The notes: generated by a model from the sequence alone, not told the origin. DNA of 64,000 bases from Bacteroidales bacterium (GCA_963677675.1 OY782180.1:712084-776083); one strand, 5' to 3'; positions 11,924 through 34,714 are shown, counted from the first letter of the stretch. Made by a program: numbers and translations.

Positions 11924-12214
11924 AATTGTAGAATTTTTATCCCAAAATATGCACGTCCCTAATTGCCCCCCCCTAAATAATTTTAATTAAATTAAGAGAG
12001 TACAGTGAGAAATAATATTTGCTTAAAAAAATAATAAATTTTAACTTTCGCGTATGTAACTTAAACTCTGTCAAGTGAAAAACAGGTTGGGATTCTTAAT
12101 AGAACAATATCCTACTCGATAAATTATAAATCCTTCCCGTTTTAATTGTGAATTTAAAATAGATATAATAATAAATACTTATTATACATCACATCAAATT
12201 TAAAAGAGATTAAA

Positions 12215-14089
12215 ATGTTAAACAGGTACTATCCAGCAGTTGATGATCCAATTTCAGCATGGAAAAATCACGTCAACAATCAAGCTAGTCTTGATGATAT
12301 TAAATTGACTTTAATAAAGCACCATTCTGAAAGCACAAAACAATCTCAAGAATTAAGGGAAACAATTAATGAAGCCAAAAGAGACTACCTTGATTCAATA
12401 AGCGAAATGTCTATAGACATTTCTAACTCAATCGATTATTGTTCTTCAAATATCTGTGGCTCTCTAGATCAGGGATTTGGTTTAATAGGTGATGATATTC
12501 AAGAATTAGGCCGAAGTTTAGATATAAGATTGTCTTTAATTATGGAGCAAGAGATAATTAATAATTTGCTTTCTGAGAATATAGCTCTTTTATTAAGAAT
12601 TCCTGAAATACAGAAAGAAAGACAATATTATCTCGAACAAGGTATTAAGCATCTTAAAAATGCATTTATTGAAAAAGATTTTTATGAAAACGCCTTAGAA
12701 AATCTTCTCGAAGCGGAAAAACGTGAAAAGACAGATTATATTTCTTTGCATCATATTGGAATGATATATTTGTATAGTAGCAAATATCTTGATTTGTCTA
12801 AAGCTGAAGACTACTTCAGAAGGGCAGGGAAATTTGCTAAAATCGAATCTGACCCAAATGCATTTAAGTTAGCTAACATCATGACTGGGAGCGTTCTAAC
12901 CAAGCTTGCAGATAATGTTTCAGATATTCATAAAATGCGTTATTTAGCTGCAGAATCATACTTGCAAGGAGCAATAGCTTGTTACATTCAAAAAAAATAC
13001 AATGAGGCTGCAGAATTGGGTCAAATAGCATTTGATCTTGCTCCTGAAATGCTTGAGGCCGGATTTTATGCCTGTCTTTCAAATGCTTTGGCTGGTAAAA
13101 ACGAGTCAACAATCAAATTATTAGGGACATTGGTAGACAGAAATTCTACCTATGCATTCATTGCGGGAACAGATCCAATATTAGCTACCAAAGATTACAT
13201 AAAGGACTGGCTAGCTGAATTGAAACAGAATACAATTAAAAGAGGACTAAGTATTGTAGAAAATATTAAGACTAATATAATAGAAAATAGCAAGTTTTAT
13301 TCTGATTTGAATGCTGCACAATCAAAGTTAAATGATGCTAATTATTTAGATGCTTTATCGATAATTTCTTATTTAAATTGTGAATTACCTATTAGTGAAG
13401 AAAAAGAGGTCTTTAACCACAATTTAGACAATATTGAATCTTTAAGAAAAGGGATTGTAATGCATAATAGAAATGTTTCGGTACTGAATAATAGTCCATT
13501 TTCTATTCACGATTTAGAAGTTATAGATGAAACAGAAATTACTAAATATGATTTTTTAAATTCTACAAATAAAATATGTGATCAATGGCTCCTTTCTGAA
13601 GAAATCTTTTTTTTATCTACAAATAAAATTATTAAAACAGTTCATAATAATTTGACAAAGTTATATCTTATCCAGTCAAATTTCAAAAAGGCAATGTCAG
13701 ATATTACGAAAAACAAAAATACATCTGCAGACGAAATGGAAAATAACAATACAGGTGTAATAGTAAGTAGTGTTGTTATTTATTGTATTGTATTTTTAAT
13801 TATTTCAAATAGTGATTTTGAAGATAAGTTTATTTTCCCCACTATTTGTCTTAGTGGGATTATTGGTGGTTTAATAATATATGCAATAATTAGGTTTAAA
13901 AAATTTAAAGCAAAAGAATACAGAAAAGAATCTATAGAAGAAATTGAACTAAATAATAGTGTAATATACTTAAATAAAAATATTAGTGATCTCGATCGGC
14001 TATTGACTATTCTTTCGAGGATAGAAATATTTCAATCTCCACCTCGTTACATACCATTCAATGTATACTTTGAACGTAATAATAAATAA
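12215..14089 (+). CDS. Hypothetical protein: helical N-terminus, TPR-like repeats, two C-terminal TM helices
   Basis: Long AT-rich ORF; TPR-like patterns (LHHIGMIYL...AEDYFRRA, YNEAAELGQIAFDLAPE); hydrophobic segments VIVSSVVIYCIVFLII and FIFPTICLSGIIGGLIIYAII. Confidence 0.7.
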   Translation: MLNRYYPAVDDPISAWKNHVNNQASLDDIKLTLIKHHSESTKQSQELRETINEAKRDYLDSISEMSIDISNSIDYCSSNICGSLDQGFGLIGDDIQELGRSLDIRLSLIMEQEIINNLLSENIALLLRIPEIQKERQYYLEQGIKHLKNAFIEKDFYENALENLLEAEKREKTDYISLHHIGMIYLYSSKYLDLSKAEDYFRRAGKFAKIESDPNAFKLANIMTGSVLTKLADNVSDIHKMRYLAAESYLQGAIACYIQKKYNEAAELGQIAFDLAPEMLEAGFYACLSNALAGKNESTIKLLGTLVDRNSTYAFIAGTDPILATKDYIKDWLAELKQNTIKRGLSIVENIKTNIIENSKFYSDLNAAQSKLNDANYLDALSIISYLNCELPISEEKEVFNHNLDNIESLRKGIVMHNRNVSVLNNSPFSIHDLEVIDETEITKYDFLNSTNKICDQWLLSEEIFFLSTNKIIKTVHNNLTKLYLIQSNFKKAMSDITKNKNTSADEMENNNTGVIVSSVVIYCIVFLIISNSDFEDKFIFPTICLSGIIGGLIIYAIIRFKKFKAKEYRKESIEEIELNNSVIYLNKNISDLDRLLTILSRIEIFQSPPRYIPFNVYFERNNK

Positions 14090-14411
14090 CGGCTACTAAC
14101 AAAATTTGAAAACATATTTTCGTTTAAGTAAAATTAGTGAGGACAACATACAATATCTATAGAGAATGTTTTGATTAGGGCAGATAATATACCAGATTCA
14201 ATAGCAAAGGAAAATATTTCTGGATAAGTAGAGTATCCTTAAATTTTAATACAACTATGAAAGCAACTATGGCACTTAAAAAACTGCTTTTCTTAGAGTT
14301 GATGCATTTCAAGAATATTTGTTAATTAATGCAAATTTGCAGCTAACAGAACAAGACAAAGCTGACATATAGCACATTACACATATTACAAGCGTAAAAT
14401 ATAATAAATCA

Positions 14412-15302
14412 ATGAATCAAGTTGATAATAAGTATTTTTTTAAGTTAAAATATTGTTCAAGAAATAATTGGTTCGATTATGAACCGGATGAAATTTTTCA
14501 CTTTACAAAACTATCTTCAGTTGAAAGCATAATGAATTCTAATTCATTACGATTTAGAAAAAATAATTATTCAAATGACGACAGAGATGGTAAAATCTAT
14601 TATTACGTTATATCTGCAATTGATAGTATTGATTCGAATCAATTAAACGACACTTCACACTGGTTAGAATTTTCTGGTATGATTAAAAGTTTTATCGAGC
14701 TATATGAACACTTAAACTTGACAATGCGTTCAAATGATACTTTTCTTAGCTTGCCAACTATGTATAACCTTTGTTTTTCAACTAAAAATAATAACCATAT
14801 GTGGTCAAAATATGGAAATTATGGCAAAGGCGTTGCGATTGGATTTTCAAAATCTTATTTAAAAAGATTTCTTGATTATCCCTTTGAATATAATGTTGGA
14901 AAATACTTTGATTGTACATGTGGAAAAGTAATTTACGATGAAATATCTAAGCATGAGATTATTGAAGACATTATTCTTAACGCTTATAATGATTATTGTT
15001 CACTTGTGCTACCTGATTTAAAAAAAGATTGCTTAGAAGAAATTAAAACTGAGCTTTTACTTTGCTCTTACTTTTTTAAAGCACCTAGTTGGCATGAAGA
15101 CAATGAATTTAGATTTATTTTATTACATATACGTAGTTTAATTCCACCTGAAATTGATGATTTTGGCAATCGTTTTATTCAGTTTAATTTTAATGACACT
15201 GATAATCTAAAGAAATATGCAATTACAAAACTAAGTGTCAAGTGTGAATCATATATAGACTCATTTACTAAATATAATGTGAATTGCGTACTATCAAAAT
15301 AA
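14412..15302 (+). CDS. DUF2971 domain protein
   Basis: FHFTK...SND, LCFS...MWSKYG...GVAIGF, GKVIY, FKAPSWHEDNEFRF pattern. Confidence 0.75.
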   Translation: MNQVDNKYFFKLKYCSRNNWFDYEPDEIFHFTKLSSVESIMNSNSLRFRKNNYSNDDRDGKIYYYVISAIDSIDSNQLNDTSHWLEFSGMIKSFIELYEHLNLTMRSNDTFLSLPTMYNLCFSTKNNNHMWSKYGNYGKGVAIGFSKSYLKRFLDYPFEYNVGKYFDCTCGKVIYDEISKHEIIEDIILNAYNDYCSLVLPDLKKDCLEEIKTELLLCSYFFKAPSWHEDNEFRFILLHIRSLIPPEIDDFGNRFIQFNFNDTDNLKKYAITKLSVKCESYIDSFTKYNVNCVLSK

Positions 15303-15314
15303 TTATTTATTCCT

Positions 15315-15450
15315 TGTTTCAAGTGGATTAAACAACATCTTCGCATCAACGCTTTTTACGGGCAGGTGAGAACGCTTTTAACGGTCAGATATGGATAGCA
15401 ATCTGTACGTACTTAGTTGCTGCTATAGCAAAGAAAAAGCTAGAAATACC
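15315..15450 (+). mobile_element. IS4-family transposase C-terminal relic with a 1-nt deletion (frameshift)
   Basis: FKWIKQHLRINAFYG, then a frameshift, then ENAFNGQIWIAICTYLVAAIAKKKLE. This matches the IS4 motif FKWIKQHLRIKxFxGTSENAVKxQIWIA. Confidence 0.8.
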
Positions 15451-15493
15451 TGATTTGGTGCTGTCCCGTTTGTGTCCCGGCTGTCTTTACGAC

Positions 15494-15534
15494 AAAGACC
15501 GTAAATGCCTGTATTAATTGCATTTACGGTCTTT
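15494..15534 (-). terminator. 15-bp perfect inverted repeat just 3' of the tRNA (terminator or att-associated hairpin)
   Basis: AAAGACCGTAAATGC-11 nt-GCATTTACGGTCTTT. Confidence 0.65.
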
Positions 15535-15538
15535 TTAG

Positions 15539-15611
<73 letters not shown>

Positions 15612-15689
15612 ATATATTTCTAATTTGGTATTATGTCTTTTTTAAGGGACTGCAAAGATATAGTAAATGCATTACAATACCAAAATTAT

Positions 15690-17051
15690 TTAGGCTTTTA
15701 ACAAAAAACCAACAAGAGCATCTTTGGAAATCCGCTGTTGTTCACCGCTTTTAAGGTTTTTAATGCTCACTTCTCCTTTTGCCAGTTCGTCTTCTCCAAC
15801 TATCGCAAGAAAAGGGATTTTCTTCTTGTCGGCATAGTCAAACTGTTTTTTAAGCTTCGTGAAATCGGTGTAAATTTCCGTAACCACTCCCGCTTTGCGT
15901 AACTCTTTAACAATGGGGATTGTAAATAATACCTCCTTGTCGCCAAGATTGGCAAAGAGAACTTTTGTTCCTTCAACGGCATCGGAAGGAAATTTATCAA
16001 GCGACTGAAGCACATCGTAAATCCTGTCTGCCCCAAATGATATGCCTACTCCGGAAACGTTGGGCAAGCCAAAGATTCCTGTGAGGTCGTCATATCTTCC
16101 TCCTCCGCAAATACTTCCCATTGCAGTATCCTTTGCCTTTACTTCAAAAATTGCCCCGGTATAGTAATTTAGCCCCCTTGCAAGAGAGAGGTCAAGCTCT
16201 GTCTCCTGGTCCACTCCTGCTGTTTCGATTAGGTTAAATAAAGTTGAAAGTTCGTCAAGACCCAGAGTGCCAATTTGCGAATTCGCAAGTATAGGCCTCA
16301 TTATCTCTATCTTTTCACGCGTAGTTCCTTTAAGCAGCAGTACCGGTTCAATTATCTCTATTGCCTTACCGTCAATTCCTTTTGAAACAAGTTCCTCTTT
16401 AACAGCCTCAATGCCTATTTTGTCAATTTTGTCAATGGCAACAGTAATATCAACAAGTTTATCCGGATGGCCGGCAATCTCTGCAATGCCGGACAGCACT
16501 TTTCTGTTATTGATTTTAATGCAAACGTTCAACTCGAATTTTCTAAAGACATCGTCTACAATCTGGACAAGCTCAAGCTCATTGATGAGAGAATCGCTTC
16601 CTACAACATCAACATCACACTGGTAGAATTCACGGTATCTTCCTTTCTGGGGCCTGTCTGCGCGCCAAACCGGCTGAATTTGATATCTTTTGAACGGGAA
16701 CACCAGTTCATTCTGATGCTGAACGACAAATCTTGCGAAAGGCACAGTCAGGTCATAGCGAAGACCCTTTTCGCACACTTTAAGCGAAAGTGAATTGCTG
16801 TTTCCAAGCATTGCCGGCTCTATTCCCGCAAATGCATCGCCCGAATTCAGAACTTTAAACAAAAGTTTATCTCCCTCCTCTCCGTATTTTCCAAGTAAGG
16901 TTGAGAGATTTTCCATCGAAGGCGTCTCAATCGGAGCATAGCCGTAATGTCGGAAAACAGAGCGTATTGTATTGAAAATATAGTCTCTGCCTGCCATCTC
17001 TGCAGGTCCGAAATCTCTTGTCCCCTTTGGAATAGACGGTTTTTGTGCCAT
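15690..17051 (-). CDS. hisS: Histidine--tRNA ligase
   Basis: [49 protein letters not shown]. Confidence 0.98.
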
Positions 17052-22783: not shown

Positions 22784-23101
22784 TTATTTCTTCTCAATCT
22801 CTTTGGCAGGATATCCAAGTTTGTCAAGTGCTTTTGCAAGGTTATCCTTCGTAGTCTTATCGGCCTCAAAACTAAACCATATTGTTTTGTTTGCAAGATC
22901 AACTTTCATGTCTTTCACGCCTTTTTCATATGGAAGTTTTGCCTCTAATTTCTTCTGACAATTCATACAGTCAATGTCCGGAATTGAAAATGTTACTTCA
23001 ACCTTTTTATTTTCTGTTTTTTTATCCTGAGCCGATGCACCTGCCGATACAAATATAAGGGCAGATAGTGTAAAAATCATAATAGTTTTAAATGCTTTCA
23101 T
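22784..23101 (-). CDS. Heavy-metal-associated (HMA) domain periplasmic protein
   Basis: Signal peptide, IDCMNC (CxxC) metal-binding loop; start at MKAFK. Confidence 0.88.
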   Translation of the reverse strand: MKAFKTIMIFTLSALIFVSAGASAQDKKTENKKVEVTFSIPDIDCMNCQKKLEAKLPYEKGVKDMKVDLANKTIWFSFEADKTTKDNLAKALDKLGYPAKEIEKK

Positions 23102-23127
23102 AATTGTTTGTTTTATTGTTAGTTTAT

Positions 23128-25377
23128 TTATTTCCAAATTGTAAATCTAAGACCTGCATATACCTTAACTCCCATAAGAGGACCCCAGATAAGTGTAGAA
23201 TTGAATCCCTGACTGTACGGGTCGCTGGCATTCATTATCGGATGCTTCTGCCTGTAATTGCTGAGATTTTCTCCTCCTATGTAAACATCAAGGTCTCTGA
23301 ATTTTTTTGTAACCTGAGCATAAAACATAGGATACACAGGAGAGTTGCCTCCTCCAGTAAAGCTGGGCAATTTTGAAGGGCCGTTAAGCTGCGCGGTAAA
23401 ATCAAAAGTCCATTTATTCATTCTTGTAGCATACTGAAAATTGAGCACACCTTTGTAGCGGCTCACAAGCGGCCTCTCTACGAGTCCCTGGCCTTCCAGC
23501 GTTGCCTTGGCATCGTTATAACGGAAAGTTGCAAGTATTGTAAATCTTTCAACCGGTGCGACAGAAAAATCGGCCTGATAGGTATTTGTATAAGATCTTC
23601 CATCCAGATTATAAAACCTGATTTCAGAAGTATTGAATTCCTGATCTACAATGAGCTGAGAATTAAAATCAGTCCGGAAATAGTCAAAACTAAGTGAAGC
23701 TTTTTTATCAAATCCAAATGGCATGTAACCAGTTAGATTAACTCCGTATGTCCATGCATCTTCGATATCCGGGTTGTTTTCAAGAACAATGTTTCGCCCT
23801 GTTGAAAGTATGCCAAGGTTGTCCGAAATCTGATTCGGGGAGCGGAATCCTCTGCCGGCTGACCCACGAAATATGAGCTCGTCAAAGAATGCATATTTCA
23901 CATTTACCCTGGGAGCGAAAAGCCATCCGTAAATATTGTTTCTGTCCAGCCTGATGCCTGTAACAACGGATACTTTTTCACCTTTAGTATATGTATACTC
24001 TCCATATGCTCCAACGGACCTCTCCTCTCTTCCCGGATAAAGAACAGAAACATCGCTGAGTTTATCTTCAGAGAATGTAAAATCCCTTCTTGTGAGAGTC
24101 TCGTCCAGATTATCCACCTGGCCGCTTAAACCCAGAATTAATTTGTGGTTTTCATTAATCTCATTCTGAAATATCACATTAACAAAAGCAGAATTTTGAA
24201 TTGCATCAAATTTATTCAACCCGAAGAATGAATTTAATCTGTGCCACGAGTAGTCAATTACTGTTGCAATGTTTTTACTGTTATCGGCATTAAGAGGGAT
24301 GCCTACTTTTAGAAATGCATTAAGTCCAGTGTTTTTTATCTCCGAGCCCCACAGATCTGAAGTGATATCCATCCCCTTTTCGAATTCATTCATCCCTGCA
24401 ACTCTGTCGTCGCTAAGTGCCTTAAACCCGAATCTTATCTGCATTCCGTTCTCTGCAAGATATAACCATCTGTTTGCCACGTTAAACTGCATAGAAACCG
24501 GTTCATCCTTGAATCCGTCATGATTTCCGTCATGACCTTTCGGGTCGGTTGAGAAGTGCCCCAGCATAACTGTGCTCCATTTATTGTTCAACTGAAGCGA
24601 TGATGCGACATTTGCCTCGGTACGCAAAGTATTGCTGAGGAAAAGATTCAGAAATAGCGGCTGTTCTGCCGTTGGTTTCCTGTGTTCAAGATTTATTTGT
24701 CCTGTTATCGCTTCCAGACCATTTACAACAGATGAGGGTCCTTTGGCTATCTGTATGCTTTCGAGCCACTGACCGGGTATATATGAAAGGCCGAATGGTG
24801 CAGCAATACCTCTCATTACAGGTCTGTTTTCGTCAAGCATCTGTGTATAAATTCCGGAGAGACCCAGTAATCGTATCTGCCGGGCTCCGGTTATTGCATC
24901 GGCATATCCTACCGTTACGCTTGCAGAGTTTTCAAAACTCTCTGCCAGGTTGCAACAAGCCATTTTGCAAAGTCCCGCAGCAGTAATGACTTCTGTCTTT
25001 ACCGGAGTTATTTTTGACAGGAAATTTCCTTCCTGTTTTCCTACAACTCTTGCGGCGTTCAGTTCATTTTGTTCCTTCAGAAGAAGTTCTGCCTTTACTT
25101 CCCCGTTTTTAAGCAATAGAGTATCTTTTGTATAGCCAACATAAGTGGCAATCAGGGATACTGTTCCTGAGCCTTTTTTGTTGAAAGAGAATTCTCCTTT
25201 ATCGTTTGACTCGAGAGAAATTTTCCCTTCAAGCCAGTATATTGAGGCGAAAGCCAATGGCTCAACCCCTCCGTCACTCTTCTGAGCTTTAACTATGCCG
25301 TTAATAGTCTGGGCATTAATAGTCAGAGCAGAAGATATAAAAAGTAAAAATGTTAAAATTTTCCTGTTCATATTCAT
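23128..25377 (-). CDS. TonB-dependent receptor (probably metal uptake)
   Basis: CarboxypepD-like N-domain, plug with ACCNLAESFE, IQIAKGPSSV, C-terminal YAGLRFTIWK. Confidence 0.9.
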   Translation of the reverse strand: MNMNRKILTFLLFISSALTINAQTINGIVKAQKSDGGVEPLAFASIYWLEGKISLESNDKGEFSFNKKGSGTVSLIATYVGYTKDTLLLKNGEVKAELLLKEQNELNAARVVGKQEGNFLSKITPVKTEVITAAGLCKMACCNLAESFENSASVTVGYADAITGARQIRLLGLSGIYTQMLDENRPVMRGIAAPFGLSYIPGQWLESIQIAKGPSSVVNGLEAITGQINLEHRKPTAEQPLFLNLFLSNTLRTEANVASSLQLNNKWSTVMLGHFSTDPKGHDGNHDGFKDEPVSMQFNVANRWLYLAENGMQIRFGFKALSDDRVAGMNEFEKGMDITSDLWGSEIKNTGLNAFLKVGIPLNADNSKNIATVIDYSWHRLNSFFGLNKFDAIQNSAFVNVIFQNEINENHKLILGLSGQVDNLDETLTRRDFTFSEDKLSDVSVLYPGREERSVGAYGEYTYTKGEKVSVVTGIRLDRNNIYGWLFAPRVNVKYAFFDELIFRGSAGRGFRSPNQISDNLGILSTGRNIVLENNPDIEDAWTYGVNLTGYMPFGFDKKASLSFDYFRTDFNSQLIVDQEFNTSEIRFYNLDGRSYTNTYQADFSVAPVERFTILATFRYNDAKATLEGQGLVERPLVSRYKGVLNFQYATRMNKWTFDFTAQLNGPSKLPSFTGGGNSPVYPMFYAQVTKKFRDLDVYIGGENLSNYRQKHPIMNASDPYSQGFNSTLIWGPLMGVKVYAGLRFTIWK

Positions 25378-25422
25378 ATTTAAAATTGTAAATAACTGAT
25401 ATTCAAAAAAATGAATATCAAT

Positions 25423-25869
25423 TTACAATCGCCATTGGGCTAAATATGAATGAGGATTTTTTTGATTTAAAAGTGGCGGACCGCCATATAATGATTCTGA
25501 TGAGTCAAAATGTTTGATTCCCGAATTGAATGCCGATTGACAGAATTCAAGATCCGATATGAGGTTAAAATAAGGAATCTGGGAAACCAGTGTGGAATGA
25601 GTTAAATCATATCCTTGTTCGAGGTGATGGATTTCTGTATGACAGCAGTTATGGTCGTGATGTTCCTGAGAACAGGCTGTTACCCCGTCACAAGAACTAT
25701 TATGACTATGATTGCCTTGATGAACATCTTCACACGATGCGTCCTTAATAAGCAGAACAACAGTAGATGTGCCGTCTTTATCACACTTGTGCACCCCAAT
25801 ACCAATGCTTGCAGTAATGTACAAAAGCACAAGCAGGGAAGGTATGATATATTTGAGAGCACTCTTCAT
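25423..25869 (-). CDS. His/Cys-rich metal-binding protein (HYC_CC_PP-like family)
   Basis: GIGVHKC...HHDHNCCHTE...GGPP pattern; typical position upstream of TBDR and HMA genes; TACTTTTG promoter just upstream. Confidence 0.65.
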   Translation of the reverse strand: MKSALKYIIPSLLVLLYITASIGIGVHKCDKDGTSTVVLLIKDASCEDVHQGNHSHNSSCDGVTACSQEHHDHNCCHTEIHHLEQGYDLTHSTLVSQIPYFNLISDLEFCQSAFNSGIKHFDSSESLYGGPPLLNQKNPHSYLAQWRL

Positions 25870-25893
25870 CGGGGGCAAAAGTACGATGTTTTT

Positions 25894-27393
25894 TTAATTA
25901 TCAATCATTTTATCGAATTCGGCAGAAATGTCTTTATCTCCTATAAAGTCGTACAGGCTTAGTTTCCGGATGTTAAAATAATAGAGCCAGAAGTTACCAA
26001 GGTCGCTAATAAGCCTTGTTGAAGCCTGATCCTTTTCGGATTGTGCATTATTAAGTTCTGTAACGCCAATGGTTCCGTCAAGGAAGCGTTCACGGGTATT
26101 ATCATATCTTTCCTTAGCAATCGAGTCGGCTCTTGCAGAGAGGTTACACTGCAGCACCTGATTGTTAAACTGAATAACTTTAATGAAAATGTTCTGTTTG
26201 TATTCTGTCATCTCCTGATCTACCTGAGCTCTCACAACCTCCTCGCGCGACTTTGCCATTTTAACCCTTCCCTTTCCAAGACCCCAGTCCATAATCGGGA
26301 GCCTCAATCCAAGACTCACAATCTGCTGGTCCATTGTATTGGAATAGGCTGTTCCCAAGTCGCTCCCCTGCTGGGTGAGACCAAACTGAGCATTAAGATT
26401 TGCCTGTAATCCCTTACTGGCTTTCATCCTCTCAACCTCCTGCTGTGCCGAAAGAATCTCAAGTTCATTATCCAGCAGGAATGCCGAGTTGGCATAAGAC
26501 TTTGTAAGAACCTCATCGAAATTAAGCGTCACGCCGGGTCCCGATTTTGGAAGGATAAGTTCCAGTTCAACATTTTCGTTAAAACCGAGAAATGTTTTAA
26601 GACGTAGCATTTTCATTTCAAGGGAAAGCTGATGGTCGTTTATCGCAAGATTGTCATTAATCATTCTAAGCTCCAGCTGCAAAAGTTCGTTTTTTGAAAC
26701 GGTATTCTTTTCATATCTCTGCTTAGCCAGTTTGTAAAGAGAAACCGTATTTTCATAGTTTTTGCTGGACATGGTGAGCCTCTGCTGAGCCTGAAGAACA
26801 TCAAAGAACATAGGCGTGACACTCACTACAATATTTTCAAGCTGATCAAGATATCTGCGTTTGGCTCTCTCATATTTCTTTGGCTCGGTTACCATCTCCC
26901 ACTTAAGAGTGTTATAGGTCCTTAATGGCTGGATATATGTAATGTTTATGGGTTGCGAATTATATGTTGCCGGATTGCTGCTGTTGTTAAACTGATCCAG
27001 CCGGTACAGACTTGTAAACACAGAAACCTTTCCACCGGTAAATGCAATATTTTGGTCTATCGACAGCGAAAGGCTGTTTTTGAGGTTGTTGTTGGCAATA
27101 TAATTAATCTCTCCTGTTTCGGAGTTTTGCAAAGGAACAAGTGACCGGTTGTACTGGCCCACAGTTGCAGAAAGATTGAGAGAAGGAAGAAGCTGTGCTT
27201 TAAAAGCGCGAAACTGCCAGTAACTTGCCAGAAAATTGTGTTTTGCAACAAGTGCGGATGGTGATTGATCTCTTGCCGTCTCAATAACTTCGTCGAGAGA
27301 CATTAAAAGTCTTATTTTTTGCGCAAATGAATGTGTTGATAATAAATTAAATACAACAATAAGTGAGACTAATAATTTACTTATTTTCTTCAT
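25894..27393 (-). CDS. TolC family outer membrane efflux protein
   Basis: Signal peptide, duplicated OEP repeats (LLPSLNLSA...QPL; GLQANLNAQFG...LRLPIMDWG). Confidence 0.88.
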   Translation of the reverse strand: MKKISKLLVSLIVVFNLLSTHSFAQKIRLLMSLDEVIETARDQSPSALVAKHNFLASYWQFRAFKAQLLPSLNLSATVGQYNRSLVPLQNSETGEINYIANNNLKNSLSLSIDQNIAFTGGKVSVFTSLYRLDQFNNSSNPATYNSQPINITYIQPLRTYNTLKWEMVTEPKKYERAKRRYLDQLENIVVSVTPMFFDVLQAQQRLTMSSKNYENTVSLYKLAKQRYEKNTVSKNELLQLELRMINDNLAINDHQLSLEMKMLRLKTFLGFNENVELELILPKSGPGVTLNFDEVLTKSYANSAFLLDNELEILSAQQEVERMKASKGLQANLNAQFGLTQQGSDLGTAYSNTMDQQIVSLGLRLPIMDWGLGKGRVKMAKSREEVVRAQVDQEMTEYKQNIFIKVIQFNNQVLQCNLSARADSIAKERYDNTRERFLDGTIGVTELNNAQSEKDQASTRLISDLGNFWLYYFNIRKLSLYDFIGDKDISAEFDKMIDN

Positions 27394-27445
27394 GGGCAGG
27401 CACTTGGGTGGTTAAATGCAAAAGTCCACTAAAGATATGAATAAT

Positions 27446-27817
27446 TTAAATCTCATTCAGAATTTTCTCGTCATAAAATTTAGAATAAAAAAACATAAAA
27501 ACGAGAGCCCTTATAATTGAAATGATTATCGCCCCTCCCAAAATGAGACTATAATTTGAGTAGTCATATTCGCAAATAAAAAAGAGAAACAGGAAATTTG
27601 CACATGCAAGGTTAAACCCAATTTCCCTGAGCAGCGAGATTATATTAAACGGGAGATAATTAAACTGGTACAAATTTGTAATAAAAACCCGCAGCCATTC
27701 ACAGTTGCATTTTTTTACGCGTTTATGCCAGTTCATCTTATGAACTAAAGAGGCAAGAATGCTTGTTGTCACACCGGTAACAACAGCAATAAATATTATT
27801 TTAAATAAAGCATCCAT
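27446..27817 (-). CDS. Small AT-rich membrane protein (about 3 TM), candidate immunity or accessory protein
   Basis: 123 aa, hydrophobic segments, starts 4 nt after the HlyD stop. Confidence 0.55.
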   Translation of the reverse strand: MDALFKIIFIAVVTGVTTSILASLVHKMNWHKRVKKCNCEWLRVFITNLYQFNYLPFNIISLLREIGFNLACANFLFLFFICEYDYSNYSLILGGAIIISIIRALVFMFFYSKFYDEKILNEI

Positions 27818-27821
27818 AATA

Positions 27822-28334
27822 TCATTTAAAAATATGTTTTAATGGATTGTATATTTTTTCAAGTACACTTGTTTCTGCAGTAATTATTTCGGCATCTCCC
27901 TCAAGAACTGCTGCCGCATTTATGGAGAGCCCCTTATTTGTTGTGAATCCGTGGGGGAAAACCAATTCAACAGTGTAAAATTTACTTTCTCCCTGTTTTG
28001 AAGGCAAAAGTTTAATACCAGATACTTCTGCTTCAATTGAGCCATATTCAATGTATGGATAGGCTCTCAGCATAATGGTTACATCCTGGCCCAGTCTAAC
28101 CCTTTCAACTTTGGACCCGGTGAGTACAAGAGTACCTTTAAAACTTGCTACCCCGCTAATTGAAACAGAAGCCCTGATATTATCGGAAAATTTAAAGTTT
28201 GCGCCAAATACAAAAAGTGAAATTACTATTGCTATCATTAAAAAATTACCCCACCGGATTATCCATTTTGGTGGTCTGGAGAGAATATCGTTAATATCTT
28301 CCGACTTTAATTCTATTTTTCTCTCATTAGACAT
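27822..28334 (-). CDS. Short HlyD-family periplasmic adaptor (about 170 aa; lipoyl and alpha-hairpin region absent)
   Basis: ELKSEDINDILSRPPKWIIRWG plus a TM, joined directly to the beta-barrel motif GQDVTIMLRAYPYIEYG...GDAEIIT...LEKI. Confidence 0.8.
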   Translation of the reverse strand: MSNERKIELKSEDINDILSRPPKWIIRWGNFLMIAIVISLFVFGANFKFSDNIRASVSISGVASFKGTLVLTGSKVERVRLGQDVTIMLRAYPYIEYGSIEAEVSGIKLLPSKQGESKFYTVELVFPHGFTTNKGLSINAAAVLEGDAEIITAETSVLEKIYNPLKHIFK

Positions 28335-30519
28335 ATAGCTGATTTTTAACAAGTTCATAATAAGGTCCCTGTTTGGCAACTAATTCCTCATGGCTCCCCT
28401 CCTCCATCACGACACCTTTATCCAGTACTACTATTTTATCTGCATTTTTTACAGTACTCAGGCGGTGCGCTACAACAATAACTGTCCGCCCTACAAAAAA
28501 GCTGTTGAGATTCTTCATTATCTCTCTTTCATTGTTTGCATCAAGTGCATTTGTTGCTTCGTCAAATATGATAAACTCCGGATTTTTATACACTGCTCTT
28601 GCAATTAACAGTCTCTGTTTTTGTCCCATGCTGAGCCCGTTTCCCTCCTGCCCTATTTTTGTGTTGTATTTGAGAGGAAGTGATTCGATAAATTCTCTGA
28701 TATTTGCAATTTCTACAGCCTTAAGCAACCTGTCTTCGTCAATCTTTTCCACTCCGGGAGCAATGTTGTTTGCAATTGTATCAGAGAAAATAAATCCATC
28801 CTGCATAACAACACCGCATTTGGACCGCCATGCGCTCATACTAAGGTTGAGTAGCCTGTTTGGCCCGTAAAAGATTTCACCGAAAGTTGCGGAGTAAAAA
28901 CCAAGCAAAAGTTTAATGAGAGTAGTTTTTCCGCTGCCGCTCGTGCCAACTATTGCCGTTATTTTTCCCGAAGGAATAATGAGGTTAATGTTTTTTAGGA
29001 CATACCCTGCTCCGGCACCTTCGTATTTAAAAAACATATTGTCGATTACAATATTCTCTCCTGAAGGAATTTCGGAAACTAATGTTTCGCTTGTATTCTC
29101 TTCCTCCTTTTTGTCGTGAATTTCTGCCAGCCTCTCAAGGCTTATTTTTGCATCCTGAGAAGATTGCATAAAGGCAATAATCTGAGCAACCGGGGAATTA
29201 AGCTGGCCATTAATAAACTGCACAGACAACATCATACCTAAAGTGAGGTCGCCGTCTATTACCGATTTTGCAGCAATAACAGTTATGAAAATGTTTTTAA
29301 GCTGATTGATGAGGGTAGCCCCGGCCTCCTGATACTGCCCGAGCGCAAGTCCTTTTATATTCAGCTTAAAGAGTTTTGCCTGAATTTTCTCCCATTCCCA
29401 GCGTTTTTGTCTTTCGCAGGAGTTTAGCTTGATTTCCTGCATGCCTGTAATAAGTTCAATTACCGAACTCTGGTTTGCAGCATTCTGGGTGAATGATTTA
29501 TTATCCAAATCCCTCCTGCGCCTCATGAACTGAGATACCCACAACAAATATATGATTGAACCAACAAGGAAAATTAAAAATATTTTCGGACTGTAATAAA
29601 GAAGTACAGCACCAAAAATTAATATGTTGAACAAAGAAAATAAAATGCTTAAAGATGATCCTGTAAGGAAATTTTGTATTCGTTTATGGTCGCCTATTCT
29701 CTGAAGCAGGTCGCCGGTCATTCTGGTATCGAAAAAACCAATCGGAAGCTTCATGAGCTTTGTGAGAAAATCGGAAAGAAGCGAAATGTTTATTCTCGTT
29801 CCAAGGTGGAGGAGAATCCAGCCCCTTATGAAATCGACGGATGCCATACTGAGAGTGAGCATGAGCTGAGCAAGAAGAACGAGCCAGATAAAGCTTATGT
29901 TTCTTTCACCGATACCAACATCAACAATGCTCTGCGTGAGAAAAGGAAGACAAAGCTGCAACAGGCTTCCGAGCAGCAAACCGCATATTACCTGAATAAT
30001 AAGTTGCCTGTGGGGTTTAAGATAAGAAAAGAGGAACGAAAAGCCTTTAGGGTTTATAGTTTCTCCCTCAACTTTATAAAACTGTGGCGTGGGTTCCAGA
30101 AAAAGAGCAATTCCTCTTCCCTGGCCATCGCTGACTGTTGTGAGCCATGATTTTTTGAATTCGTCTGCAGTAAGTTTTACAAGACCTGTTGCGGGATCGG
30201 CAATTAACATTCTGATATTTTCCCCGCTTCCCTTCACTCCGTACAAAACTACAAAGTGTTTCTGGTTCCAGTGCAGTATGCAGGGCAATGTTCCTTTGCA
30301 TAATTCTTCGAACGAAAGCCGTGCACCGAGACTTCTGAGGCCAATGCTTTCCGCAGCCTTGCTTATTCCGAATAAATTTACGCCTTGCTTTGAAAATTCA
30401 CATTTCTCTCGCAGTGTCTCCAGTGTATAGTGGCGGCCATAGAAGTTTGCGATCATCCTGAGCGATGATGGTCCGCAGTCTGTTGAATCCAGCTGAGAGA
30501 AGTGTTTGAATCCCTTCAC
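28327..30519 (-). CDS. Peptidase C39-containing ABC transporter (PCAT; bacteriocin/pheromone processing exporter)
   Basis: QLDSTDCG (catalytic Cys), HFVV (His), IADPA (Asp); TMD; Walker A GTSGSGKTT, LSMGQKQR, DEATNALD, AHRL; GTG start. Confidence 0.96.
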   Translation of the reverse strand: MKGFKHFSQLDSTDCGPSSLRMIANFYGRHYTLETLREKCEFSKQGVNLFGISKAAESIGLRSLGARLSFEELCKGTLPCILHWNQKHFVVLYGVKGSGENIRMLIADPATGLVKLTADEFKKSWLTTVSDGQGRGIALFLEPTPQFYKVEGETINPKGFSFLFSYLKPHRQLIIQVICGLLLGSLLQLCLPFLTQSIVDVGIGERNISFIWLVLLAQLMLTLSMASVDFIRGWILLHLGTRINISLLSDFLTKLMKLPIGFFDTRMTGDLLQRIGDHKRIQNFLTGSSLSILFSLFNILIFGAVLLYYSPKIFLIFLVGSIIYLLWVSQFMRRRRDLDNKSFTQNAANQSSVIELITGMQEIKLNSCERQKRWEWEKIQAKLFKLNIKGLALGQYQEAGATLINQLKNIFITVIAAKSVIDGDLTLGMMLSVQFINGQLNSPVAQIIAFMQSSQDAKISLERLAEIHDKKEEENTSETLVSEIPSGENIVIDNMFFKYEGAGAGYVLKNINLIIPSGKITAIVGTSGSGKTTLIKLLLGFYSATFGEIFYGPNRLLNLSMSAWRSKCGVVMQDGFIFSDTIANNIAPGVEKIDEDRLLKAVEIANIREFIESLPLKYNTKIGQEGNGLSMGQKQRLLIARAVYKNPEFIIFDEATNALDANNEREIMKNLNSFFVGRTVIVVAHRLSTVKNADKIVVLDKGVVMEEGSHEELVAKQGPYYELVKNQLYV

Positions 30520-30599
30520 TTTTATAACAAATTCATTTTAAATAATTTGGACAATTGTAACAATTATCCCAATGCATAATATAATTATGCCGTTCAATT

Positions 30600-30641
30600 G
30601 TAGTTTAAATGCTGAAAATCAGCATATTGTCATTAAACTAC
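30600..30641. other. Nested stem-loop between the precursor and PCAT genes
   Basis: GTAGTTTAA-ATGCTGA-AAA-TCAGCAT-(bulge)-TTAAACTAC; second hairpin GCATAAT-ATA-ATTATGC at 30574-30590. Confidence 0.5.
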
Positions 30642-30661
30642 CTAAAATTCTTAAGAAATAC

Positions 30662-30799
30662 TTAATTTCTTCCGTCGCGGATAATGATGTAAACTACGTT
30701 ACCTTCGCTGTCGATTATTTGTAAAACTTTGTCACCGCCGATTACATTAATCATCTCTTGTTCATTCAAATTTTCAAATGTTGTGTTTGTTGTTTTCAT
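30662..30799 (-). CDS. Double-glycine-leader peptide precursor (45 aa), absent from the ORF track
   Basis: MKTTNTTFENLNEQEMINVIGG|DKVLQIIDSEGNVVYIIIRDGRN*. The leader fits the LSxxELxxIxGG consensus, and the gene lies immediately upstream of a PCAT. Confidence 0.88.
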   Translation of the reverse strand: MKTTNTTFENLNEQEMINVIGGDKVLQIIDSEGNVVYIIIRDGRN

Positions 30800-30844
30800 T
30801 GCATTTATTGTTTTTGTTCATACAAATAAATTAATAAAAATTGT

Positions 30845-30852
30845 TAGATTTG
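30845..30852 (+). promoter_or_regulatory. Bacteroidetes primary-sigma -7 element (TAnnTTTG) for the HK/RR operon
   Basis: TAGATTTG about 40 nt upstream of ATG 30892. Confidence 0.65.
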
Positions 30853-30859
30853 CATACAA

Positions 30860-30892
30860 ATTACTGACTGTTTACTGATAGTTTGCTGAAAA
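30860..30892. promoter_or_regulatory. Three direct repeats in 11-bp phase, candidate OmpR/PhoB-type regulator site
   Basis: ATTACTGACTG / TTTACTGATAG / TTTGCTGAAAA (core TTRCTGA). Confidence 0.6.
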
Positions 30893-32265
30893 TGCTAAAT
30901 CGCGCACTCTCCATTTCAATTATCGCCATTCTTTTTCTTCTCTCCCTTCAGGGGGCATGGCTCGTGAGAATCATTGAAAATGAGAAAACTAAATTTAAAA
31001 CTGATGCCGAAAAAATTTTAAAAGACGCTACAAATAAGGAATTAAACACAAGGCTAAAAACACTTAACCAAAGTAATTTTAGCGTAGTTCTTTCAAATAA
31101 TTTTTCTCCAGATAAAGTTTCTTCAAATACAAAGGTTCAAACTTTAGATATTTCCAAGTCAAGACCATACACAAAAGTTACTCTGGAAGAGGCTCTTCAA
31201 GAGGCATATAAAGATGATTTTCCTTTGAATCTGGATACTTTATCCGCAATTTTTTCAAGATTGCTGGCAAAAGAACAAAAATCTACAAATTACAAACTCG
31301 CATATATTTCCTCCGATACAACAAAAATCATTGAGTCTGAAAAGACAAATACAAATATATTTTTCCTGAACTCTTCATTTGAGACAACATTACCACTAAC
31401 TGTATCGAAAGATCTCTCAATTAAGGCAACTATTTTCTATCCCCGCACTGTATTTAAAGGAGACCTGCTTACAATATTGATTTTGTCCCTTGTTTTAACG
31501 ATATTTATTCTGTTCAGCATAGTCATGCAGACACGAATGTTATATAAACAGGTATCGCTTGCAAAGCTCAAGGAGAACATCACACACTTCCTCACGCACG
31601 AGCTCCGTTCACCTCTTCAGTCTTCAATAACCAATCTTGAGGTTGGGCAAATGGCCGACAGCAAAACAGCACCTTATTTTCTTGAGAAAACGAAGGAGCA
31701 GCTTTACTTTCTAAATGGACTCATCGAAAATATCCTGGATATAAATAAGTTTGAGAAACGTCAGTCTTCCCTTAAAAAAGAGCTGTTTGATATAAATGCA
31801 GCAATTGAACCGCATATCGCAAGGCATAATGTGGATGCGAAGAAAACCGTTACAATTTCCACAGACATCACACCCGGAAACGAGATGTTTTATGGCGACA
31901 AGCTTCATATTTCCAATGCTATTGGAAATCTTATAGACAATGCAATCAAGTATTCAAACGATCCTGTGAACATTATAGTTTCGGCAAAAGAAGACAAGCG
32001 TTTTTACAACATCTCTGTTGAAGACAACGGTATTGGAATACCAAAGGATGAACAATCAAAAGTATTTGAGAAATTCTACAGGGTAAATAAGAGAGAACAC
32101 TCTCAAAAAGGCAAGGGTTTCGGCCTCGGTCTAACTTATGTTATGTGGGTGGTTAAGGCCCATAAAGGAAAAATATCTCTCACCAGCGAGGTGGGAACGG
32201 GAAGTAAGTTTACATTATCACTAATTAAAAACGAACATGGCAAAGAAAATACTGCTCGCGGATGA
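30892..32265 (+). CDS. Sensor histidine kinase (2 TM, about 165-aa periplasmic domain, HisKA, HATPase)
   Basis: THELRSPL H-box, NLIDNAIKY N-box, DNGIGI, FEKFYRV, GFGLGL. Confidence 0.95.
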   Translation: MLNRALSISIIAILFLLSLQGAWLVRIIENEKTKFKTDAEKILKDATNKELNTRLKTLNQSNFSVVLSNNFSPDKVSSNTKVQTLDISKSRPYTKVTLEEALQEAYKDDFPLNLDTLSAIFSRLLAKEQKSTNYKLAYISSDTTKIIESEKTNTNIFFLNSSFETTLPLTVSKDLSIKATIFYPRTVFKGDLLTILILSLVLTIFILFSIVMQTRMLYKQVSLAKLKENITHFLTHELRSPLQSSITNLEVGQMADSKTAPYFLEKTKEQLYFLNGLIENILDINKFEKRQSSLKKELFDINAAIEPHIARHNVDAKKTVTISTDITPGNEMFYGDKLHISNAIGNLIDNAIKYSNDPVNIIVSAKEDKRFYNISVEDNGIGIPKDEQSKVFEKFYRVNKREHSQKGKGFGLGLTYVMWVVKAHKGKISLTSEVGTGSKFTLSLIKNEHGKENTARG

Positions 32266-32911
32266 CGAGTTAAACTTCGGCTATGCGATGAACGAGTTCC
32301 TGAAAATGAATGGTTATGACCTCAAATTCGTGAATGACGGGAGGAGTGCGCTTGAGCAATACCACATTTTTCACCCGGATCTTTTGCTTTTTGATGTAAA
32401 TATGCCTGAAATTGACGGATTCGAACTCGCTAAGCTAATACGGGCAACAGACAAAAACATTCCGATTATCTTTATCACCTCTATAAGCGACGACAGCAGC
32501 GTTGCAAACGGTTTTGAAATAGGCTGCAGCGACTACCTTAAAAAACCTTTCGGCCTTAGAGAGCTGATTATACGAGTTGAAAAATGTCTTAAAATTTCAA
32601 CAAAAGACAACGACATTTTTACAATCGGAAGCATGAATTATTCTCCGGAAGACAGAAGCCTCATTCAGCAGGATGGTTCATCAATTACCCTCTCATTCTA
32701 CGAAAACAGCCTTTTACAAATACTTTGCAACAACTACAATCAGATTTGCAAGATTAACGACCTTGTAAATACAATTTGGGGAGACAAAGATATCGATACA
32801 AAAAAATCTCTTGAGGCTCTGGCGTCTCACCTGAGAAAAAAGCTTTCAGAAACCGGCATTAATGTGGAGAACATACGCGGTGTGGGTTACAGACTCAGAA
32901 AAACGGAGTAA
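32237..32911 (+). CDS. OmpR/PhoB family response regulator
   Basis: ADDE, FDVNMP phospho-Asp, KKPF, winged helix ending NIRGVGYRL. Confidence 0.95.
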   Translation: MAKKILLADDELNFGYAMNEFLKMNGYDLKFVNDGRSALEQYHIFHPDLLLFDVNMPEIDGFELAKLIRATDKNIPIIFITSISDDSSVANGFEIGCSDYLKKPFGLRELIIRVEKCLKISTKDNDIFTIGSMNYSPEDRSLIQQDGSSITLSFYENSLLQILCNNYNQICKINDLVNTIWGDKDIDTKKSLEALASHLRKKLSETGINVENIRGVGYRLRKTE

Positions 32912-32950
32912 AGCTTTTTTTTATTAGATTTGTTCCGTAAATACAACAAC

Positions 32951-34714
32951 ATGAAAAATTTCTTAAAAATCGTGGCAGGAACCTTTGTGGGTTCGCTGCT
33001 GGCTATGGTACTTGGAACACTTATTCTTATAGGTGTAATAGGATCAATAGCATCTTTTACCGAAAGTAAAACGCCAACAGTACCCGATTCTGCAATTCTT
33101 GGAATCAGCTTCGCTTCGGCAATAACCGAACAGTCAATAGAGGACCCTTTTGCAGCATTTAATCCTTTCGCAAACGCTTCTTCTAAATCTACCGGAATAC
33201 TGGATTTTATTCAGACAATTGACAGGGCCGCGACCGATCCTGCAATTAAGATGGTATATCTGAATCTCAATGAACTGAATGCCGGAATCAGCCATATTGA
33301 AGAGATTCGCGCAGCCCTTGTAAGGTTCAGGGAAAGCGGCAAGCCAATTATAGCGTATGCAGACAATTACTCACAGGCGGGATATTATCTTGCATCTGCA
33401 TCAGATAAGGTATATTTAAATCCTGCAGGAACTGCAACATTAACCGGGCTTAGCCTTAGCACTTTATTTTTTAAAGATTTGCTGGACAAGGCAGGAGTAG
33501 AAGTTCAGCTCATTCGCCACGGAAAGTTTAAAGCTGCTGCCGAACAGTTCATCAGCAATAAAATGAGCGACGAAAACCGCGAACAACTTCAGGCATACCT
33601 TGATGCCGTATGGAATACATGGATGACAGATATTTCTGCTTCAAGAAGAATGCCTGTCGAAAAGATTAACGAACTTACAAATAACCTTCAGCTTGGTACA
33701 GCAAAACAGGCACTTGAAGCAGGCCTTGTCGACGGCCTTTTATATAAGGATGAGCTTACAGACACACTTGTTCATCTTTTTGGAGTTAAAGACGAGAAAG
33801 CTCTTAAGGTAATCTCTTCTTCCGATTATTCTAAAGCTACCAAAAAGCTTAACCTGAAAGAGAAAAACAAAATCGCTGTTGTTTATGCCAATGGTGACAT
33901 TATTATGGGCAAATCGGACGAAAACATTGCATCCGACAACTTTGTTGCGCTTCTTGCCAAAGTAAGGAAAGACAGCTCAATTAAGGCAGTTGTGCTAAGG
34001 GTAAACTCTCCGGGTGGATCTGCTCAGAGTTCCGAGATTATTGAACGCGAGCTTGCACTTTTGCGTAAGGACAAACCGGTTGTAGTGAGCATGGGAGACT
34101 ATGCCGCTTCTGGGGGATACTGGATTGCTTCTAATGCAGACAAAATTGTTACAAACAATACTACGCTCACAGGTTCTATTGGTGTGTTCAGCATGGTTTT
34201 AAATGCTCAAAAGACACTCAACAAACACTTGTCGATAAATACAGCAACCGTTAATACAAATAAACACAGCGATATAATGTCCGGCTACAGATCTCTTGAC
34301 AATGAAGAAATTGCATTTATCCAGTCTTCTGTTGAGGTAATTTATACCGACTTTGTGAATCTGGTTTCTAAAGGCAGGAACTTATCTGCAGAAAAAGTAG
34401 ATTCTATTGGACAGGGCAGAATATGGTCAGGTGCAGATGCATTGAAAATCGGCCTGGCAGATGAGAAGGGCGGCATATCGGAAGCTCTTAAGGTTGCAGC
34501 TGCAATGGGCGAGGTTGAAACATACAGAATTGTTGAGTACCCTGTCATTAAATCGCAGATAGACAAAATCATTGAGACCCTTTCCGAAACAGGCGAGAGT
34601 GCAAAAGTGATAGCAAACCCTGAGATAATTCTTGAGAAAGCATACGCCAGACTTCGCAACGAATCCGGCATTAAAACATATGCCCGTCTTCCATTTAACG
34701 TAAATATCCGGTAA
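32951..34714 (+). CDS. sppA: Signal peptide peptidase SppA (67-kDa type, S49)
   Basis: YYLASASD, RHGKFKAA, LRVNSPGGS, SMGDYAASGGYWIA, TGSIGV, GQGRIWSG. Confidence 0.96.
   Translation: MKNFLKIVAGTFVGSLLAMVLGTLILIGVIGSIASFTESKTPTVPDSAILGISFASAITEQSIEDPFAAFNPFANASSKSTGILDFIQTIDRAATDPAIKMVYLNLNELNAGISHIEEIRAALVRFRESGKPIIAYADNYSQAGYYLASASDKVYLNPAGTATLTGLSLSTLFFKDLLDKAGVEVQLIRHGKFKAAAEQFISNKMSDENREQLQAYLDAVWNTWMTDISASRRMPVEKINELTNNLQLGTAKQALEAGLVDGLLYKDELTDTLVHLFGVKDEKALKVISSSDYSKATKKLNLKEKNKIAVVYANGDIIMGKSDENIASDNFVALLAKVRKDSSIKAVVLRVNSPGGSAQSSEIIERELALLRKDKPVVVSMGDYAASGGYWIASNADKIVTNNTTLTGSIGVFSMVLNAQKTLNKHLSINTATVNTNKHSDIMSGYRSLDNEEIAFIQSSVEVIYTDFVNLVSKGRNLSAEKVDSIGQGRIWSGADALKIGLADEKGGISEALKVAAAMGEVETYRIVEYPVIKSQIDKIIETLSETGESAKVIANPEIILEKAYARLRNESGIKTYARLPFNVNIR

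Follow-up and report, generated by a model that had tools for sequence, protein, structure and literature searches.

Closest described systems

It is textbook knowledge that Gram-positive bacteria read peptide pheromones through two-component systems; quorum sensing in Gram-negative bacteria is thought to use small diffusible molecules, and we know of no peptide/two-component circuit characterised in the Bacteroidota, which dominate guts, digesters and sediments. We analysed a locus at positions 25,894 to 32,911 of a 64,000-nucleotide stretch of DNA from a Bacteroidales bacterium (GCA_963677675.1 OY782180.1:712084-776083; this whole stretch is called the window below), in which a peptide precursor with a double-glycine (GG) leader and a peptidase-containing ATP-binding cassette transporter (PCAT) face a histidine kinase (HK) together with a response regulator (RR) encoded on the opposite strand. 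We propose, with a probability of roughly 55%, that this locus is an autoinducing peptide/two-component loop, a self-regulating signalling cassette in which the exported peptide would be the ligand of the HK.

On our best reading, which is one by analogy, the cassette works like NisRK or like the GG-pheromone systems of Firmicutes and is a member of neither. As with NisRK and SpaRK, which control lantibiotics in Lactococcus and Bacillus, the exported peptide would be its own inducer, the kinase has two transmembrane (TM) helices and an extracytoplasmic loop, and an OmpR-family RR is predicted to act on the promoter of the structural operon. Because the host here is diderm, the sensor faces the periplasm. 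The locus differs from NisRK and SpaRK in that the peptide is unmodified (there is no LanB, LanC or LanM), the PCAT would take the place of a LanP-type protease in cutting the GG leader, the sensor domain shows no sequence relationship, and no antimicrobial activity is known. With the Firmicute systems (ComC/ComAB/ComDE, BlpC/BlpAB/BlpRH and PlnA/PlnBCD) it shares an unmodified GG peptide of ~20 amino acids (aa), processing and export by a PCAT, a peptide gene beside the HK and RR genes, and a receptor domain that is hypervariable between strains. However, the kinase is not of the polytopic (5-7 TM) HPK10/AgrC type, the RR is OmpR-type instead of LytTR, the peptide gene is co-oriented with the exporter and divergent from the HK and RR genes, the peptide is an acidic hairpin where those are cationic helices, and outer-membrane components are present.

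Two Gram-negative export systems, that of class II microcins (CvaA/CvaB/TolC for microcin V) and RaxX-RaxABC of Xanthomonas, likewise combine a GG peptide, a PCAT, a HlyD-type adaptor and TolC, and the rax locus is associated with a two-component system, RaxH/RaxR. Here, in contrast, the adaptor is without the coiled-coil hairpin (most other species of the genus have a full-length HlyD of 436-460 aa), there is no sulfotransferase and no consistently present immunity gene, microcins are much longer than this peptide, and peptide and kinase form a tight pair in several families. Within the Bacteroidales, the cluster BGC5, which makes a ribosomally synthesised and post-translationally modified peptide (RiPP), also has an HK and an RR adjoining GG-motif precursors, named only as putative regulators; unlike the present locus it carries radical-SAM and LanC-like enzymes and long cores, and its kinase, DNA boxes and conservation were not analysed in that paper (PMC10352776). 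We found no description of this peptide/PCAT/HK/RR cassette in the searchable full-text literature.

Conservation of the peptide-kinase pairing

The window sits in a single-contig genome of 2.43 Mb. The gene content that the preliminary description had read from the sequence is confirmed: the minus strand carries, from the promoter outward, the GG precursor, a PCAT with an intact C39 domain, a short HlyD, a 123-aa membrane protein and a TolC, all of them intact open reading frames, and an HK and OmpR-type RR face this operon from about 90 nt away. We measured 92 nt between the HK start codon at 30892(+) and the ATG of the precursor; the HK gene overlaps the RR gene. The reported lack of a RiPP-modifying enzyme also held, no gene for a radical-SAM, LanM, YcaO-type or other maturase being found at 19.4-36 kb of the window (within 10 kb).

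We retrieved 20-kb regions around the HK orthologue from genomes of the same genus and completed them by a search for related loci. Contigs permitting, every one of the 26 loci has precursor, PCAT, HK and RR in this divergent order, including three species in which the HK is only 41-44% identical. HK/RR orthologues found mostly apart from the PCAT and precursor, the pattern which the preliminary description had named as speaking against its proposal, are therefore not what the genus has. All relatives are Bacteroidales metagenome-assembled genomes (MAGs) from groundwater, wastewater and digesters, with labels as varied as "Rikenellaceae bacterium UBA9571/UBA12406", "HGW-Bacteroidetes-7" and "GWF2_40_14".

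A sensor profile built from the N-terminal 230 residues of the HK, using genus sequences only, matched 4 of the 236 genera sampled from the order. Matches to this profile, to the full-length HK and to a broader profile gave access to loci outside the genus, at least 8 of which have an HK with the same sensor domain back-to-back with a GG-leader peptide. At least 6 other genera show this divergent pairing, often with no other shared neighbour. After the GG cut, the cores read VKHYVCINGEYFYYEE and RWVVVDGELVFVNN (first and second locus of G399), QYIEIIIDGTIYRIRI (G025, in three tandem copies), VWVTVVINGTPTKLWIE (G173), YSNEGEGEYITIYINGKKYRIRKS (G037), ...VVYKGKLYILIDGELVPVED (G165), QWIEIKNPDGTTTTVEV (L141/L142) and KLLMVIINGKKRWIMLP (L143), each a hairpin of the form strand-[DN]G-strand with a length of 14-30 residues. 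A PCAT is missing within 6-10 kb of several of these loci, and others have one together with a radical-SAM protein or an outer-membrane barrel. Since the PCAT is absent near several of them, the conserved link is that of the peptide beside the kinase and regulator, as in comCDE or agr.

There are exceptions. In G136 the position of the peptide is taken by a small secreted Cys-containing protein with an NVEALA motif (L065:9767-10087(-)), followed by beta-propeller-type lipoproteins; another locus has a peptide remnant only, and a paralogous HK in G001 adjoins a Cys-rich GG precursor, radical-SAM genes and a PCAT. For 17 more remote HKs (profile E-values of 1e-13 to 1e-26) we found no hairpin GG peptide, so the association with the peptide defines a sub-family of HKs. 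The autoinduction by an unmodified peptide that was originally suggested thus stands as far as the layout is concerned, which synteny and the co-variation of operator boxes (below) mark as a conserved functional unit, while the pairing of peptide and kinase as ligand and receptor is one that we infer.

Probable operator boxes and their co-variation with the regulator

We aligned the 95-113-nt spacer between the two start codons from 18 genus loci. The phased repeats noticed earlier between the divergent genes correspond to three direct repeats on the plus strand, TTACTGA (30861-30867), TTACTGA (30872-30878) and TTGCTGA (30883-30889), which lie 11 bp apart (one helical turn) and keep their position in the aligned loci. 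They are located between the -7 box and the ATG of the HK gene, the last one ending 2 nt short of the ATG. Across the 2.43 Mb of the genome there are just two copies of the trimer [AG]CTGA-N6-[AG]CTGA-N6-[AG]CTGA, and shuffled sequences contain none.

The RR (224 aa, 32237-32911(+)) has the Pfam domains Response_reg and Trans_reg_C (E-value 5e-13) of the OmpR/PhoB family and scores as RprY-like at 154 bits, below the cut-off of 370. Across the genus, all three box copies change at once and together with the recognition helix of this protein, which is KSLEALASHLRKKL in the window. The helix ...LASH(L/V)RKK goes with [AG]CTGA in 15 loci with three matching boxes, ...(A/T)SN(L/V)R(K/R)K with GCTCA (L016, L036, L051 and L052), ...LVLNLRRK with ACCTA (L027), and ...VL(V/L)(Y/H)KTR(K/R)K with CCTTA or ACTTA (L028-L030). 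Three loci with His in the helix (L015, L038 and L024) have one degenerate box each, GCTTA or GCATA, and L041 and L042, whose helix also has His, carry two CTCA boxes and one CTGA box and are read as intermediates of the change. Judged from these alignments, boxes and helix have changed in concert at least three times independently. This is the strongest evidence on the operator, and it is the reason why we predict that the three repeats are the binding boxes of the adjacent OmpR-type RR.

The HK-RR promoter has a -7 element, TAGATTTG, at 30845-30852(+), which matches TAnnTTTG perfectly and is kept in position in the genus loci. In the other direction, TTTATTTG at 30823-30830(-) is a near match to this Bacteroidetes consensus and the putative -7 element of the precursor promoter; the block that holds it, TACAAATAAATTAATAA, is kept in 15 of the 18 aligned loci. 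Relative to this putative promoter the box centres fall at about -45 to -67, and relative to the HK promoter they fall within the transcribed leader, which would be an activator position for the precursor and a repressor position for HK-RR.

The second trimer of the genome (GCTGA-N6-GCTGA-N6-GCTGA, G000:C1:1919238-1919264) lies 58 nt upstream of the gene for a 584-aa HisKA_7TM-PAS kinase (G000:C1:1917424-1919178(-)), where the -7 boxes are arranged back-to-back, as they are in the window. The nearest species (L127) has this site too, and the kinase gene may be a second member of the regulon. At other genes, relatives carry one or two further sites of 3-4 boxes each, and no such sites were found in other genera. 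Triple phased boxes were also considered for the distant systems and rejected, only pairs of repeats at 10-11 bp, and no rigorous pattern, being seen there.

The precursor and its family

The precursor (45 aa, 30662-30799(-)) consists of the leader MKTTNTTFENLNEQEMINVIGG and the core DKVLQIIDSEGNVVYIIIRDGRN. Its leader qualifies as a double-glycine leader, FENLNEQEMINVIGG showing the canonical F-15, L-12, E-8, M-7 and V-4. The predicted mature peptide has 23 aa, a mass of 2630 Da and a pI of 4.7, and has no pattern of Cys, Ser or Thr for rings. No NCBIfam model matched the precursor at E <= 0.01, and in Pfam it weakly resembles enterocin leaders (E-value 0.01). A profile search over 5.8 billion proteins yielded 135 matches, and every listed match with an organism name comes from a Bacteroidales or Rikenellaceae MAG. 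Where NCBI gives family members a name it is "bacteriocin", a label based on the leader alone.

Among the 120 family members listed (of 135 found) there are 109 distinct cores. The GG-leader motif is kept throughout these 120, D-x-x-G-N-V-x-Y-I-I-I is nearly invariant, the tails are DGR(P/N) or an acidic run, the net charge of the core averages -3.1 (range -10 to +2), and only 2 cores contain Cys. AlphaFold2, run on the precursor with 62 family members, predicted that the leader forms a short helix and that strands 23-29 and 35-41 pair as a beta-hairpin (pLDDT of 84-92 in the core). One species, L020, has two to three precursor copies in a partly N-masked region (L020:10411-11229), one of them with a diverged, Cys-containing core, RFVITFIDMNSIKCCEVIENCTDRYQSAEIVIC.

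The sensor kinase

The HK (457 aa, 30892-32265(+)) has the Pfam domains HisKA (with His236) and HATPase_c, preceded by TM1, a periplasmic domain of ~165 aa and TM2, its only two TM helices. No Pfam model matches the periplasmic domain. An AlphaFold2 model of the sensor from 22 sequences (pLDDT 71.6) suggests a long TM1 helix that extends into the periplasm, a poorly ordered segment (59-97), two helices, a four-stranded sheet and TM2, and a Foldseek search of this model against the PDB gave no match below an E-value of 0.05.

Between the window and its relatives L013 and L032, DNA identity falls to 74-87% in 30950-31550, compared with 95-99% in the flanking genes. In this segment dS rises to 0.76 (0.16-0.33 in the flanks) and dN to 0.13 (0.002-0.008 in the flanks), with a dN/dS of 0.17. 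The raised dS points to an older, separate history of the segment and recombination between diverged alleles, and the dN/dS of 0.17 argues against simple positive selection. Such mosaic divergence of the sensor resembles that of pherotype loci. The mature peptide differs from that of the window by one residue in L013 and by four in L032, so that the divergence of the sensor is no proof of a matching change of ligand.

Proposed mechanism and alternative readings

In the proposed loop, the C39 domain of the PCAT would cut the precursor after Gly-Gly and the PCAT would expel the peptide from the cytoplasm; passage through the outer membrane may or may not be served by the short HlyD and the TolC beside it. 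The 23-aa acidic beta-hairpin peptide would be sensed by the periplasmic domain of the divergent HK, and the HK would phosphorylate the OmpR-type RR. The RR would then bind the three boxes, 11 bp apart, which are placed some 45-70 bp upstream of the putative precursor promoter and at the same time within the 5' leader of the HK operon, raising transcription of precursor and exporter (positive feedback) and probably damping that of HK-RR. A small downstream regulon is suggested as well, because the second trimer precedes the HisKA_7TM-PAS kinase gene. Since the adaptor is without the hairpin that docks TolC, the peptide may be released into the periplasm of the producer itself, which is the site of the sensor.

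Several points weigh against this proposal. The host is an uncultured Bacteroidales bacterium (wastewater, groundwater), and a cultured host sought among its relatives was not found, these being MAGs only. The outer membrane poses a problem, given the hairpin-less adaptor of this genome, and a 2.6-kDa acidic peptide hardly re-enters a diderm periplasm from outside. Some class II microcins of Gram-negative bacteria are anionic, and a toxin therefore cannot be dismissed on charge alone. In the comparison of the window with L013, ~25% of sensor residues are changed as against one residue of the peptide, a poor fit to strict co-evolution of ligand and receptor. A mirror-tree comparison did yield the correlation between peptide core and sensor domain that the preliminary description had asked for (r = 0.76; partial 0.48 when controlling for the PCAT; Mantel p = 5e-4), but an unrelated, fast-evolving protein of the neighbourhood (HYC) gives a partial correlation of 0.55 with the sensor; the correlation was therefore seen without being specific, and we discarded it as specific evidence. 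Finally, coverage by contigs from four wastewater runs with the label "RNA-Seq" is even over all 10 kb, and one contig spans the divergent promoter. This suggests DNA carry-over in these metatranscriptome-labelled data and makes the runs uninformative on transcription of the precursor. For L067, the relative with three copies, a look for RNA runs turned up none.

A more far-reaching version, which we hold only tentatively and rate clearly below the loop, is a genuine pheromone system in which a peptide carries signals between cells of a diderm phylum. It would be a family-level innovation of the Bacteroidales, with GG hairpin peptides read by a new periplasmic sensor domain, pherotype-like diversification of the receptor by recombination, an OmpR-type RR with co-evolving boxes, and exit or re-entry of the peptide through the outer-membrane barrel or TonB-dependent proteins that adjoin the exporter in several families.

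We consider it unlikely that the locus instead encodes an autoregulated bacteriocin or microcin, i.e. an antimicrobial peptide exported by PCAT, HlyD and TolC, with the 123-aa protein as immunity protein and a two-component system that tunes production by sensing the toxin, as NisRK does for nisin, or another cue. A GG leader with a PCAT, a membrane fusion protein and TolC is indeed the export layout of class II microcins, most loci have a small multi-TM protein after HlyD, and the naming by NCBI, the weak likeness to enterocin leaders and the extra, diverged copies of L020 (one with Cys) point the same way. That name, however, goes back to the leader only, and strong conservation of a short (20-30 aa), acidic core is unlike toxins, which usually diversify. 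The candidate immunity gene is missing from L014, the closest relative that keeps the peptide, and from several others, and in other families it is the kinase that accompanies the peptide, not an exporter or an immunity gene. These points weaken the bacteriocin reading, although an autoregulated bacteriocin would be compatible with autoinduction.

Regulation without recognition is about equally improbable in our view: the HK would sense an envelope, metal or nutrient cue, and the RR would switch on, through its boxes, the export of a peptide with a structural, nutritional or other role. The boxes speak for wiring from RR to promoter and leave aside sensing of the peptide by the kinase, the sensor varies strongly between strains that share nearly the same peptide, a metal-type HYC_CC_PP/TonB/HMA unit lies downstream in most of the genus, and the broader HK family has many members without a peptide. 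Against this, a peptide that is one of many outputs would hardly account for the recurrence of the tight peptide-kinase pairing in at least 6 other genera, and L028-L030 are without the metal-type unit yet have the peptide/PCAT/HK/RR core. Chance adjacency of an unrelated exporter operon and two-component system is strongly disfavoured, for although synteny within one genus can last by descent alone, the pairing recurs across families with otherwise different neighbours and the RR-type boxes in the shared promoter co-vary with the RR.

An autoinducing loop of this kind would consist of compact, testable parts, namely a synthesisable, unmodified 23-aa peptide, a two-TM kinase, a regulator and a 30-bp operator, and the natural specificity variants (CTGA with His, CTCA with Asn) allow a clean swap. 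If confirmed, it would provide a ligand class for an unannotated sensor domain and a case of how diderms handle a peptide signal across the outer membrane, and it could serve as an orthogonal inducible switch for Bacteroides engineering.

Exporter and neighbouring genes

The PCAT (730 aa, 28327-30519(-)) comprises the Pfam domains C39, ABC_membrane and ABC_tran, all above cut-offs (Peptidase_C39 at 106.6 bits, with a cut-off of 22). The catalytic residues Cys15 (in DCGP) and His88 (in HFVV) are kept, and so are the ATPase motifs (Walker A at 528, signature at 629, Walker B at 652 and H-loop at 684). The protein aligns end to end (residues 3-725) with PCAT1 (4ry2, E-value 3.5e-106) and ComA (8hf4, E-value 6e-101), scores 414 with NCBIfam TIGR01193, under the cut-off of 524 of that model, and has a dN/dS of 0.02. 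With a C39 domain and the TM and nucleotide-binding domains of a type I exporter, it is by its sequence a PCAT/AMS transporter that is predicted to be catalytically intact. The spacer between the precursor and PCAT genes (30519-30661(-)) has three hairpins with a predicted RNA fold of -30.4 kcal/mol (z = -2.6) and a terminator-like match, and may act as an attenuator or as a stabiliser of the mRNA. A second C39-type ABC transporter (686 aa) is encoded elsewhere in the genome (G000:C1:2272950-2278172(-)), with genes for a TolC-like protein of 440 aa and a full-length HlyD-like protein of 420 aa after it; no GG peptide was found adjoining it.

The short HlyD-type adaptor (27822-28379(-), 170-185 aa, with a probable ATG at 28334) matches TIGR01843 over its C-terminal ~100 aa only (model positions 316-413 of 422). 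Aligned with orthologues of 436-460 aa, it shows a clean in-frame loss of ~255 aa, which covers the lipoyl halves and the coiled-coil hairpin, with which other adaptors dock TolC; what is retained is the TM anchor at the N-terminus and the beta-barrel part at the C-terminus. It has no stops and a dN/dS of 0.25 against both a close and a distant relative, from which we conclude that the gene is maintained. The same ~255-residue loss is common to the window, L013/L033, L014 and L032, where TolC also lies directly downstream, and a second lineage (L025 and L026) has an independent short form. In the majority of the species of the genus, HlyD has 436-460 aa and no adjoining TolC, the TolC orthologue being located ~9 kb away on the other side. 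The hairpin-less HlyD with adjacent TolC is thus present here as first described, but it is a derived state of a sub-lineage and does not belong to the system as such. Two other families have a CarboxypepD_reg + OMP_b-brl_3 barrel directly beside the PCAT of the cassette (L068:5531-7870 and L064:16898-19213), and L068 also has a short HlyD of 226 aa; small adaptors with a dedicated outer-membrane barrel may be a recurrent solution to export.

The TolC-family outer-membrane factor (499 aa, 25894-27393(-)) matches Pfam OEP (E-value 3e-27) and, partially, TIGR01844, with a dN/dS of 0.03-0.05. Within the genus its gene adjoins the exporter in this sub-lineage only, as seen in the window, L014 and L032. 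Between TolC and HlyD, the small membrane protein (123 aa, 27446-27817(-)) has ~3 TM helices, no match in Pfam or NCBIfam and a dN/dS of 0.15. It occurs in most loci of the genus and is missing from L014, L016, L024, L027-L030 and L051; it could be an accessory or immunity-like protein, and no consistently present immunity gene was found in the genus loci.

Downstream of TolC lies a tight unit of three genes in one direction (22784-25878(-)), for a His/Cys-rich HYC_CC_PP protein, a TonB-dependent receptor and a protein with an HMA domain, and this unit adjoins the exporter in most of the genus. L028-L030 are without it and have peptide, PCAT, HK and RR, and for this reason we treat it as a separate neighbour, probably a metal-related (metal uptake) unit, and rejected the TonB-dependent receptor as a part of the system. 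On the other side, a gene for the signal peptide peptidase SppA (32930-34714(+)) begins 18 nt past the RR in the same direction, a placement that recurs in several, though not all, relatives, and co-transcription with the two-component genes is possible. Away from the locus, the G+C content is 0.29-0.32 at 12001-16000 of the window, compared with ~0.41 elsewhere, which matches the AT-rich islet marked in the preliminary description.

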